From Alphaproteobacteria bacterium (GTDB lineage Bacteria; Pseudomonadota; Alphaproteobacteria; Rs-D84), in assembly GCA_017427715.1 (NCBI GenBank), contig JAFRSF010000024.1, positions 30,268 through 94,267 of the forward strand: DNA of 64,000 bases, read 5' to 3'. Shown here piece by piece: positions 48,347 to 48,644 of the stretch. Position 1 is the first letter of the stretch. Each line of letters begins with the position of its first letter. A program made the translations under genes and the position numbers. A model generated the notes under the pieces. That model saw nothing but the letters and a program-made list of their open reading frames with translations. It was not told the origin of the DNA and searched no databases.

Positions 48347-48423
48347 CGGGGTGTAGCTCAGTCTGGTAGAGTACTTGGTTTGGGACCAAGGTGTCGGAGG
48401 TTCGAATCCTCTCGCCCCGACCA
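48347..48423 (+). tRNA. tRNA-Pro(UGG)
   Basis: Hand-folded: acceptor CGGGGTG/CGCCCCG, anticodon stem CTTGG/CCAAG, loop TTTGGGA, T-arm GGAGG-TTCGAAT-CCTCT, encoded CCA. Confidence 0.9.
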
Positions 48424-48431
48424 GAAAATTC

Positions 48432-48458
48432 AAACCACCACTTTTGTGGTGGTTTTAA
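48432..48458 (+). terminator. hairpin terminator directly after tRNA-Pro(UGG)
   Basis: AAACCACCAC/GTGGTGGTTT 10-bp stem followed by a T-run. Confidence 0.6.
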
Positions 48459-48485
48459 TTTTGTGTTCTGGCGAAATTTGGATTT

Positions 48486-48592
48486 GATACATCACAACGA
48501 AGTTGTCAGGTTCGACAAGCAGTAGATTTTGCAAGCGCAAGCGTAGCGAAATCGTCACGATTGCCCCACAGACACGAAGTGTCGAGGGAATC
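48486..48592 (+). other. conserved tRNA-Pro-linked block, copy A (candidate structured RNA or integrative-element arm)
   Basis: About 75% identical to 54210..54309. Three hairpins have co-varying stems and the linkers between them are conserved. Confidence 0.5.
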
Positions 48593-48610
48593 TCTCGCCC
48601 CGACCAGAAA
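48593..48610 (+). repeat. 18-nt exact direct repeat of the tRNA-Pro(UGG) 3' end plus flank (att-like)
   Basis: TCTCGCCCCGACCAGAAA is identical to 48410..48427. Confidence 0.9.
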
Positions 48611-48614
48611 GATT

Positions 48615-48644
48615 AAACCGTTCGTTAAGAGCGGTTTTATTTTG
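48615..48644 (+). terminator. hairpin terminator-like structure after the repeat
   Basis: AAACCG/CGGTTT stem followed by a T-run. Confidence 0.4.

Follow-up and report, generated by a model that had tools for sequence, protein, structure and literature searches.

The two tRNA-Pro genes of the window, the 64,000-nt stretch of DNA analysed here (Alphaproteobacteria bacterium, Rs-D84; GCA_017427715.1, contig JAFRSF010000024.1, positions 30,268 to 94,267, forward strand), are each followed by a folded element of ~75 nt, K, which is undescribed so far. Our preferred explanation, held tentatively and as somewhat short of probable, is that K is the folded core of miniature non-autonomous, structure-dependent mobile modules that act as a single strand. 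In each unit the functional tRNA is intact and its GGTTCGA T-loop motif leads into B, the tRNA 3′ end from T-loop nt 59. There follow a proximal terminator hairpin (t), an inverted copy of B (F), a second GGTTCGA (T; GGGTCGA in the tRNA-Pro(GGG) unit) directly abutting K, a second copy of B (B′) and a distal terminator hairpin (t′) (Table 1). Slashes mark junctions below, and related loci in other genomes and metagenomes carry labels such as L003, L015 and L033.

Table 1. Features of the two tRNA-Pro units in the window
Feature	Positions	Strand	Remarks
tRNA-Pro(UGG)	48347..48423	+	ARAGORN and Rfam
T-loop GGTTCGA of tRNA-Pro(UGG)	48399-48405	+	
B of tRNA-Pro(UGG)	48406-48427	+	T-loop nt 59 to CCA plus 4 nt, ATCCTCTCGCCCCGACCAGAAA
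t, proximal terminator hairpin	48432..48455	+	AAACCACCAC-TTTT-GTGGTGGTTT; tip of extended palindrome B-t-F
F	48456..48493	+	imperfect inverted copy of tRNA 3′ end
TCTGGCGA within F	48467-48474	+	pairs with TCGCC..CCAGA
GGATTTGATAC within F	48480-48490	+	degenerate, T-loop-like
Hairpin 1	48494..48506	+	ACAAC-GAA-GTTGT
Second GGTTCGA	48509..48515	+	copy of T-loop nt 52-58; left junction of insert
K, core element	48516..48589	+	CAAGCAGTAG ... GAGGGA
P2 of K (hairpin 2)	48525-48553	+	with inner 2-bp helix
6-1-6 palindrome in K	48550-48562	+	AATCGTCACGATT
P3 of K	48565-48569 paired to 48584-48588	+	
Hairpin 3 of K	48571-48583	+	
B′	48590..48610	+	ATC-TCTCGCCCCGACCAGAAA; tRNA-Pro(UGG) 3′ end from T-loop nt 59
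t′, distal terminator-like hairpin	48615..48637	+	
Degenerate island 'start module'	48642..48714	+	..CCAATACTTGCAATTAGTTTGAAAAC..TTCTCGGACT
tRNA-Pro(GGG)	54071..54147	+	ARAGORN and Rfam
T-loop GGTTCGA of tRNA-Pro(GGG)	54123-54129	+	
t, proximal terminator-like hairpin	54157..54175	+	
F	54176..54212	+	TTTTTGTTTTG pairs with CAAAATAAAAG
GTGGTG in F	54189-54194	+	pairs with CGCCAC
Hairpin 1	54213..54229	+	ACATTGC-ACT-GCAATGT
GGGTCGA	54232..54238	+	T-loop-like left junction
K, second window copy	54239..54311	+	
P2 (hairpin 2) of second K	54248-54276	+	
Hairpin 3 of second K	54294-54305	+	
B′	54312..54337	+	exact tRNA 3′ end copy plus 8 nt of trailer
t′, distal terminator hairpin	54343..54371	+	bidirectional; also terminates convergent 585-aa ORF

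A sequence-only reading of the window had described a tRNA, a terminator, a conserved block and a copy of the tRNA's own 3′ end, and this layout, with a block of ~110 nt, is present at both tRNA-Pro genes. Each repeat does match its own tRNA. There are exactly two occurrences of the 18-mer TCTCGCCCCGACCAGAAA, at 48410-48427 and 48593-48610, and the 28-nt repeat GAACCCCGCCACTCCGACCAAAATAAAA at tRNA-Pro(GGG) has its copies at 54128-54155 and 54310-54337. B′ of the UGG unit carries a 1-nt deletion relative to B (ATCC to ATC-), with 18 nt exact. A conserved 18-mer, TCGACAAGCAGTAGATTT, is found in the window solely in these two units, with 0.05 occurrences expected by chance. The three hairpins whose stems were said to differ in a compensatory manner between the two blocks were all found as described; hairpin 1 is a module present in the Pro/Gly(ccc) subtype, with compensatory changes among orthologues. 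Absent from that description were the exact junction at T-loop nt 58/59, the GGTTCGA before the block and the upstream inverted copy of the tRNA end.

K runs from CAAGCAG to GAGSGA and folds into three helices with strong covariation in two independently gathered sets of homologues. Among 50 distinct genome-contig sequences, 89.7% of cells are paired compared with 72.1% in shuffles and 19-53% in slid controls, 14 of 19 pairs have changed on both sides, and compensatory cells number 153 against 40.5 expected. The independent metagenome set behaves in the same way (90.2% paired versus 71.9%; 177 compensatory cells versus 48), so the compensatory pattern is not an accident of the two window sequences. 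Homologues were gathered by exact-match patterns within the linkers, the stems being left out of the patterns, and the seeming invariance of CGACAAGCAGTAG and TCGTCACG is therefore partly ascertainment. Helix wobbles in 91 distinct copies are G·T or T·G rather than A·C or C·A by 70 to 19, which identifies the tRNA-sense strand as the folding strand. The final nucleotides of K, GSG, are paired to a CSC lying directly 5′ of the hairpin at the right end, and this pairing covaries (GC 21, CG 19, AU 2). Two pairings proposed by RNAalifold, CAA/TTG at the left end and GU/AC, were rejected as invariant and unsupported by the sister subfamily K′; the first is invariant in K and broken in K′. Coding potential was likewise rejected, as substitutions are stem-compensatory and not codon-like and the overlapping minus-strand ORFs are unsupported.

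A covariance-model search, which had been proposed on the basis of the two window copies, returned more than 100 copies in MAGs of Alphaproteobacteria from gut and rumen ('Ca. Enterousia' and relatives), with at least 10 in MAG CAMOGA01. The suggested link to tRNA-Pro proved too restrictive, the family being found behind 20 tRNA isoacceptors of 10 amino acids. Units at the same tRNA are kept across species whose flanking proteins are 38-92% identical (mostly 38-67%), and the copies within one genome are diverged from each other, from which we infer that K is old and now largely resident. This combination fits selection at the level of the host at least as well as it fits mobility. B′ corresponds to the tRNA of its own species and follows tRNA substitutions (CGCTCCG in both B and B′ of L004). 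It lies within 2 mismatches of 16 in 38 copies, and in many copies it is truncated or separated from K by an extra (ext) module. The 1-nt B′ deletion is common to the first window copy and L004 as aligned, and L038 and L089 show the ATC-T junction too. The direct repeat has a fixed start in the T-loop and a variable end after CCA, and it sometimes takes in the whole terminator (L003, L007, L022). Tandem units occur in L009, L020 and L022.

The boundaries of K are exact. All tRNA-linked copies that were read closely have the junctions GGTTCGA/K and K/RTCC...CCA, equivalent to T-loop nt 58/59, and all 115 of 115 copies have an RTCC-type flank or an ext module after K. The left junction is a copy of the unit's own T-loop: in L015 the tRNA-Ser has GGTTCAAATCC and K stands after GGTTCAAA. 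The T-stem 5′ strand is absent from most units, and the tRNA-Leu locus L003 has a whole T-arm with K in its loop (AAGAGTTCGA-K-TTCTCTT..). K is also found away from tRNA ends. It stands alone at ..CACCGAGTTCGA/K/AAGTT.. in L018, L027 and L011, where the same module is empty in L004, L010, L026 and the window, whose start module at 48642..48714 is the empty counterpart of this TTCGA/AAGTT site. L042 similarly has CCCCGTTCGA/K/ATCCACC against an empty site in L035. The K′ subfamily is nested antisense inside K at ..GACGA/ (L033, L102), and L015 has two K copies head to tail. Since K stands by itself at TTCGA/ sites with empty counterparts in relatives, nested within another K and head to tail, it is a discrete insertion unit, lying immediately 3′ of a TTCGA motif; beside tRNA genes this TTCGA represents T-loop nt 54-58 of the partial copy. 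The K-less sites could instead be precise deletions between flanking GA/CGA. Beyond this ambiguous GA/CGA there is no target duplication, and restriction-like or serine-recombinase readings of the GA/CGA shared by both junctions were set aside because S can be other than C and a duplex circle of 80 bp is implausible. The idea that K is an intron in a full tRNA gene was rejected, as ARAGORN recognised 0 tRNAs after removal of K in silico from the 115 copies. A search for a K-less partial tRNA copy with an intact T-loop found none, so duplication of B′ and K are coupled, a coupling that the mobile-module explanation does not derive.

In that preferred explanation, a trans-acting enzyme encoded elsewhere would handle K, or the larger B-t-F-T-K segment, as a folded single-stranded nucleic acid, with a logic that may resemble IS200/IS605 ends, integron attC or the CTXphi attP hairpin. 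The enzyme would join the 3′ end of K (GAGSGA/) to a cut in the T-loop (TTCGA/), the B:F hairpin might imitate the duplex tRNA end in folded form, and B′ copies could then have served islands as extra attachment sites. In common with IS200/IS605 ends, their miniature derivatives (PATEs) and REP/REPIN elements (RAYT), K is small, non-coding and lacks terminal inverted repeats. As in IS200/IS605, K is strand-specific with a hairpin near each end and lies immediately 3′ of a fixed TTCGA with no target duplication (filled versus empty TTCGA/K/AAGTT and TTCGA/K/ATCC; nested GACGA/). Its GSG:CSC pairing has the topology of the guide/cleavage-site pairing of IS608. Unlike that family, K is tied to a duplicated tRNA end, a tie known for no IS200/IS605 member, and no matching guide for a left cleavage site was found. 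Its hairpin stems differ between copies, which speaks against a mobile module as known Y1 transposases read conserved hairpins. Also against it, no enzyme was found in the ORF searches given below, and neither the flanks nor a metagenome scan with the left-end 18-mer yielded an autonomous copy sharing the ends of K; true matches in that scan were all complete or truncated K, with no gene after any.

Another account, which we regard as unlikely, takes the units for decayed or satellite integrase islands. B-t-F-T-K would then be a remnant, B and B′ would be attL and attR cores with crossover in or next to the T-loop, K would be an arm by attR, and an integrase elsewhere would mobilise the unit as for cis-mobilisable elements or tycheposon remnants. 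Such an origin would suit a repeat that starts at a fixed point of the T-loop and ends variably past CCA, the agreement of B′ with the tRNA of its own species, the tandem units and the cargo islands bounded by the same repeats. It also has a precedent in the partial-tRNA arrays left by successive integrations, as documented for tycheposons (10.1101/2020.12.28.424599). However, no integrase, Y1 transposase or autonomous copy was found in ~740 kb of flanks, and the tyrosine recombinase motif (H.LRH + LGH..Y) is absent from 790 ORFs of at least 120 aa. In phmmer searches XerD and IS608 TnpA, the latter as an approximate query, matched none of 3231 ORFs. The sequence-only reading had noted the lack of an integrase in the window, and Pfam scans of 50 window ORFs bear this out, the sole recombinase or transposase genes being that of a 202-aa resolvase at a distance of 33 kb and those of two IS1595 transposases about 30 kb off. 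The integrase-bearing islands with the block at a tRNA that it envisaged were not encountered, with no integrase found in ~100 related loci. A single K family at 20 tRNA cores is also unlike integrase lineages, strand-biased covarying hairpins are unexpected in duplex arm sites, K inserts alone without a tRNA core, and a 180-bp duplex circle is implausible as a recombination substrate. A phage or plasmid sequence was rejected after no match in PLSDB or INPHARED, and three patterns (K, K′, ext module) had no match in IMG/VR.

What remains in common with P4-type islands, tycheposons and cis-mobilisable elements is a direct repeat of the tRNA's 3′ part that restores the gene, tandem accretion and cargo between repeats. 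K units differ from P4-type islands and tycheposons in lacking an integrase, in being as small as ~180 bp, in forming one family at 20 tRNAs, in placing a covarying core exactly at T-loop nt 58/59 and in including an inverted copy of the tRNA end. The earlier proposal of an integrative element is supported by the own-tRNA repeats and by cargo arrays bounded by tRNA-3′ repeats in relatives. Its ordinary duplex arm is not, given the strand-specific covarying helices, the occurrence of K alone at the empty sites of relatives and the lack of an integrase. A full-text literature search found no description of such a unit, arrays of partial tRNAs being covered in the tycheposon paper only.

The second earlier proposal, a structured non-coding RNA family, gains from the fold and from its absence from Rfam and loses from the lack of a promoter-like site between terminator and block. 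Each of the two earlier readings is right in part, and each is too narrow. In a developed form, read-through from the tRNA promoter would yield a trailer RNA whose F and B′ segments pair, giving a stem like a tRNA minihelix around K and an end in ..CCA. This RNA might take part in the processing or quality control of tRNAs, or serve as a decoy for acceptor-end enzymes, and K-only copies would be exaptations or relics. We consider a function of this kind improbable. It would fit the covarying helices with their sense-strand G·U pairs, the retention of entire units at a given tRNA between species whose protein identity is mostly 38-67%, and the terminator after B′. The tracking of own-tRNA substitutions by B′ also suits it, although the window and L004 share the 1-nt deletion. 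Insertion after T-loop nt 58 also spares the 5-nt T-loop motif. Set against this, t resembles an efficient terminator and neither window unit has a promoter-like site between t and K, most units lack the T-stem 5′ strand, many B′ copies are truncated or set apart from K by an extra module, and K is found in further contexts and nested in antisense. Nor is there an Rfam family. Only tRNAs pass the Rfam 15 gathering score in the window, and in E-value mode (48420-48660 and the L033 array) the best match was RNA-OUT, with 20 bits against a cut-off of 41 and lying over the terminator, so a known RNA family was rejected.

The direct/inverted/direct order of the unit, with turn-rounds at t and at GAACC-n-GGTTC, is also what a by-product of templated rearrangement would leave. 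Snap-back or template switching at the terminator hairpin and T-arm, by a reverse transcriptase on tRNA precursors or by DNA polymerase at quasi-palindromes, would create the triplication B-t-F-T-B′ with K co-copied at the switch point. F runs on from the terminator stem, B′ begins at nt 59, and whole terminators are sometimes included in the repeats (L003, L007, L022). The nt 58/59 boundary is the classical reverse transcriptase stop before m1A58. Yet no RT gene was seen in the window, repeats that run past CCA mean that mature tRNA was not the template, a complex event would be needed anew at 20 tRNAs and the covariation of K is left unexplained, which together make this origin very unlikely.

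We hold RNA-guided targeting to be the most improbable of the explanations. K would be a compact scaffold and B′ a 3′ guide as in TnpB/IscB omega RNAs, with TTCGA as target-adjacent motif, the tRNA 3′ end as target and the effector encoded elsewhere. B′ resembles a guide in that it starts at a fixed point after the scaffold and varies in length (17-28 nt); it agrees with what follows TTCGA in its own tRNA and tracks tRNA substitutions, and the flank after K-only copies equals the sequence after TTCGA at empty sites. However, there is no tnpB or iscB in the window or beside copies whose neighbouring ORFs were read or Pfam-scanned. The scaffold falls far short of known omega RNAs in size, a promoter is lacking, and the target would be an essential gene of the own genome. 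The 1-nt deletion of window copy 1 and L004 falls at guide position 4, inside the expected seed, and L038 and L089 have the same junction.

If K is indeed a structure-dependent mobile module, T-loop nt 58/59 of tRNA gene copies would represent a new class of target, common to all tRNAs. Such a module would further illustrate how a small element can persist at essential genes and leave them unharmed, seated in a spare copy of the tRNA end. For RNA biology, K provides a well-supported unclassified fold with more than 100 members for transcriptome screening, and for annotation it accounts for the 'partial tRNA' signals that recur behind tRNA genes. Rickettsia palindromic elements and other structured intergenic repeats are of ~100 nt, have a conserved fold, occur in Alphaproteobacteria and are tolerated inside RNA and protein genes. 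These elements, compared with K by description only, are not known to be tied to a single T-loop position or to a duplicated tRNA end.

The inverted copy F adjoins the terminator stem without a break and lengthens its hairpin. Where K is present, B:F pairing covers 12.0 of the last 17 tRNA nt compared with 8.8 in controls (p=2.5e-5), and in L003 the locus's own T-loop recurs within F as its reverse complement, AATCGAAC. This hairpin test superseded a duplex test of a closing helix between the 5′ flank and B′ (cognate versus non-cognate); the closing helix was rejected, being clear for Val, Ser, Arg and Gln units and not for Pro. A B-t-F hairpin that would be a folded mimic of a duplex target is reminiscent of CTXphi, and K units share with integron attC and CTXphi attP(+) structure kept above sequence, one active strand and cassette-like arrays. 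They differ in having no IntI and no R/L boxes (GTTRRRY), the R″/R′ pattern RYYYAAC...GTTRRRY being absent from K and B-t-F hairpin sequences. The target is moreover a tRNA T-loop or 3′ end and not attI or dif, and K is a further multi-helix domain without counterpart. An extended version, which we think decidedly unlikely, would make the units an undescribed recombination system programmable by its own folded nucleic acid. A single-stranded module, of DNA or RNA, would carry both the B:F target mimic and the K core, insert at any tRNA T-loop, duplicate the 3′ end and so create landing pads on which integrase-less cassettes could build up behind tRNA genes.

Cargo islands are found both at the true tRNA end and at B′ copies (L010, L011, L026, L027, L042), and exact tRNA-3′ copies mark the boundaries between islands in related loci. 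The spare B′ copies have the look of additional docking points for such islands. In ORF clustering across 28 loci the only recurrent neighbours were syntenic housekeeping genes. In this poorly known uncultured gut and rumen lineage, accessory genes form arrays downstream of tRNA genes and no integrase lies close by, the cargo comprising GIY-YIG, HD and HXXEE genes together with genes of unknown type.

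Both tRNA-Pro genes of the window are followed, in the 5' to 3' direction, by a terminator-like hairpin, a spacer of ~30-40 nt and a conserved block; a copy of the gene's own 3' end comes next, and a second terminator last. ARAGORN and Rfam calls, together with exact repeats of 18 nt at tRNA-Pro(UGG) (48410-48427 = 48593-48610) and 28 nt at tRNA-Pro(GGG) (54128-54155 = 54310-54337), confirm this layout, which had been proposed from the sequence alone; the three hairpins with compensatory differences between the two blocks are present as then stated. The conserved 18-mer TCGACAAGCAGTAGATTT occurs within the 64 kb only in these two blocks (0.05 expected).

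Features of the tRNA-Pro units, related modules and recombination genes (window positions unless a locus is named)
Feature	Position	Strand	Source
tRNA-Pro(UGG)	48347-48423		ARAGORN + Rfam
Proximal terminator-like hairpin, tRNA-Pro(UGG)	48432-48455
Core K, first copy	48516-48589
Second terminator, tRNA-Pro(UGG) unit	48615-48637
tRNA-Pro(GGG)	54071-54147		ARAGORN + Rfam
Proximal terminator-like hairpin, tRNA-Pro(GGG)	54157-54175
Core K, second copy	54239-54311
Second terminator, tRNA-Pro(GGG) unit	54343-54371
Module ext	L033 4700-5240; also L007, L020, L029, L035, L011	minus (L033)
Block family K2	L016 oriented 5560-5645; L010 oriented 5330-5420; L012 ~7082; L031 tail	minus (L016)
FtsK/HerA-like ATPase	11369-12562	minus
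Serine recombinase, resolvase type, 202 aa	15203-15811	plus	Pfam
IS1595-family DDE transposase	16361-17938	plus	Pfam
IS1595-family DDE transposase, adjacent	17976-18965	plus	Pfam

A pattern scan limited to one genome for each species gave 35 loci, 28 with the block and seven chance matches; every one of the 28 comes from an alphaproteobacterial MAG of gut or rumen ('Candidatus Enterousia' and UBA, RUG and RGIG bins). The covariance model R1, built from 28 sequences, extends the family beyond the two tRNA-Pro copies to 53 copies in the 28 genome loci and the window, where it finds only the two known ones, and to 70 further copies in 75 metagenome loci, with covariation in both sets. Nothing similar was found in Rfam, at gathering or E-value threshold, or among PLSDB plasmids, INPHARED phages and IMG/VR. 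On the tRNA strand, 55-100 nt 3' of the gene, the block follows 20 isoacceptors: Pro (tgg, ggg, cgg), Arg (acg, tct, ccg), Gln (ctg, ttg), Tyr, Val (tac, cac), Gly (ccc), Met, Leu (tag), Ser (gct, cga, tga, gga) and Lys (ttt, ctt). The family is thus not specific to tRNA-Pro. At least 10 copies, spread over six or more tRNAs, belong to a single MAG, CAMOGA01. The 3' end of the copy's own tRNA follows the block in 38 copies (at most 2 mismatches of 16), and in 36 others it is truncated or separated by ext, a ~81-nt AT-rich module (ACGMAGATAWACAATTAG..AAAAAATCGAAGTTCACRAGATTTTTTT..ATTGTWTATCRAGG). This module folds into a long hairpin of three tiers, its outer stem showing compensatory changes, and lies between K, the ~75-nt folded core of the block, and the tRNA-3' copy, or within that copy. 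The association of block and repeat is real, and its family is larger and stranger than the sequence-only reading described: it is unclassified, has over 100 members and a well-supported fold, and occupies a fixed T-loop position in duplicated tRNA ends.

Three helices of K are supported, namely P2 (8 bp with an inner 2-bp helix), P3 (CCSCRC with GYGSG) and hairpin 3, which P3 encloses. Paired cells reach 89.7% in the genome set and 90.2% in the metagenome set (72.1% and 71.9% when shuffled), compensatory cells number 153 and 177 (40.5 and 48 expected), 14/19 pairs are changed on both sides in either set, and slid registers pair 19-53% and 20-50% of cells. In 91 distinct copies G·T/T·G number 70 and A·C/C·A 19, so that the tRNA-sense strand is the folding strand. 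This shows that the K fold is selected as a single strand, compatible with RNA or single-stranded DNA. Linker invariance is partly ascertainment, the linkers having served as search patterns for collecting copies, and linkers do vary in diverged model-found copies (the sister subfamily K' and variants at L015). An invariant 6-1-6 palindrome, AATCGTCACGATT, lies inside K (48550-48562). That the fold belongs to a functional trailer RNA with a minihelix-like end seems unlikely; no promoter-like site was found between the proximal terminator hairpin (t) and K.

K runs from CAAGCAG to GAGSGA. GGTTCGA (T, equal to T-loop nt 52-58) always lies directly 5' of it, and on its 3' side come RTCC, the 3' strands of T-stem and acceptor, CCA and a further few to ~50 nt; K thus interrupts a partial copy of the tRNA 3' third between nt 58 and 59. 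We call the tRNA end from nt 59 B and its downstream copy B'. The left junction mirrors the T-loop of the cognate tRNA: at L015 the tRNA-Ser has GGTTCAAATCC and GGTTCAAA precedes its K, and at the tRNA-Leu of L003 AAGAGTTCGA[K]TTCTCTTTACCCCCACCA is an entire T-arm with K in the loop. Upstream of K, the tRNA end recurs as an imperfect inverted copy (F) that continues the terminator stem, as at L020 (CCCAGCAGGACGAGAACC against the reverse complement CCCAGCAGGACTCGAACC) and at L003, where F includes AATCGAAC, the reverse complement of that T-loop. Pairing with F among the last 17 tRNA nt is 12.0 with K and 8.8 in controls (p=2.5e-5), several of which carry other block families. With t' for the distal terminator and a slash for a junction, the unit order is tRNA[..T/B] - t - F - T - K - B' - t'. 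An intron of the tRNA gene was considered and rejected, removal of K in silico restoring a tRNA in 0/115 copies. No K-less partial tRNA copy with an intact T-loop was found outside real tRNAs.

K is a discrete insertion unit. The tRNA-Gln-array module ..CACCGAGTTCGA/AAGTT.. has no insert in the window (48642-48714), L004, L010 and L026, and has K exactly after TTCGA in L018, L027 and L011; in tRNA-Tyr arrays, CCCCGTTCGA/K/ATCCACC of L042 compares with the empty CCCCATTCTAATCCACC of L035. K' is nested antisense within K at ..GACGA/ (L033, L102), two copies of K abut head to tail at L015, and there is no target duplication beyond an ambiguous GA or CGA common to the target and the 3' end of K. 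A different block family, K2 (GGGTTCGA/CCCGCAGGCGAAAGG...GAAGCGAAACA/ATCC), occupies the identical T-loop 58/59 position in other units. The insertion point TTCGA/NTCC, found in all tRNA T-loops, splits GANTC, the CcrM methylation motif of Alphaproteobacteria, which the terminal GA of K regenerates at the right junction.

Cargo genes lie between the tRNA and units and between successive units at L010, L011, L026, L027 and L042; their products include a GIY-YIG, an HD and an HXXEE protein and putative GNAT-like paralogues, and most are without a family. Since a start module of its own and a degenerate tRNA-3' end delimit each stretch, islands occupy B' copies as well as the true tRNA end, and the spare copies may provide additional island attachment sites. 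The tRNA-Gln islands (L010, L026, L027, L011) start with TTCTAATACTTTCACCGAGTTCGAAAGTT..~40 nt..CTTTCGAACT, an inverted repeat around TTCGAA, and finish with a degenerate tRNA-Gln 3' end ..CGCCCGCACACCCCAACCA; in L027 the first cargo gene, directly after the tRNA, encodes a small GIY-YIG nuclease-domain protein (3734-4024). Behind the tRNA-Tyr of L042 (minus strand, oriented 1-2100) are two tandem cassettes with putative paralogous ~190-aa GNAT-like proteins; in each cassette a start module is accompanied by a pseudo T-arm that carries a K insert and by a 3' repeat of tRNA-Tyr. In the window, 48642-48714 is a decayed island start module after the first unit.

In our tentatively favoured reading, K is the folded core of a mobile module that is non-autonomous and structure-dependent. 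K would be processed in single-stranded form and attached on the 3' side of TTCGA, and at tRNA genes it would reside within a spare, partly palindromic 3'-end copy. A circle [B-t-F-T-K] recombining its K-end/B with the T/B of a tRNA would reproduce the observed order exactly. If the circle is single-stranded, B:F would imitate the duplex target by folding, in the manner of CTXphi attP or integron attC, and GSG/CSC pairing beside hairpin 3 may share the topology of the IS608 guide/cleavage-site pairing. An omega-RNA-like scaffold with a guide is a most improbable account of the units.

The tyrosine recombinase signature occurs in 0 of 790 ORFs, and phmmer with IS608 TnpA and XerD, a weaker check, gave no match among 3231 ORFs in ~740 kb of flanks. 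No recurrent neighbouring gene was found, nor an autonomous element with the left end of K. That the units are relics of integrase-type elements in which K was an arm, as first suggested, is given a low probability. By Pfam, the only recombination genes in the window are the small resolvase and two IS1595 transposases, ~30 kb away; with the ATPase they give 9000-19000 a mobile look. Elsewhere (32356-37215) a choloylglycine (bile-salt) hydrolase family gene adjoins that of a 1221-aa ankyrin-repeat protein, a pair that fits a host-associated gut lifestyle.

The K family resembles several known systems and has the defining features of none among those testable. We file it with miniature structured mobile or attachment modules at tRNA genes, and there is a real chance that its mechanism is new.

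Flanking proteins of the window are 56-67% identical to those of L005 and 38-42% to those of L030/L032. Nine species nevertheless keep the tRNA-Pro(UGG) unit, and compensatory changes are seen in t, hairpin 3 and hairpin 1, a small structured module of the Pro/Gly subtype. Copies group by tRNA type, not genome, and B' changes in step with its own tRNA (at L004, B and B' share CGCTCCG), with a 1-nt deletion in B' common to the window and L004. Such tracking could reflect gene conversion, quasi-palindrome correction via F or repeated recombination; templated rearrangement through snap-back or reverse transcription is a very unlikely source of the units. The tRNA-Arg(TCT) of the window (28877-28953, minus strand) has neither unit nor downstream terminator hairpin, and a tRNA-Arg(TCT) unit is present in L019, L020, L041 and L055.
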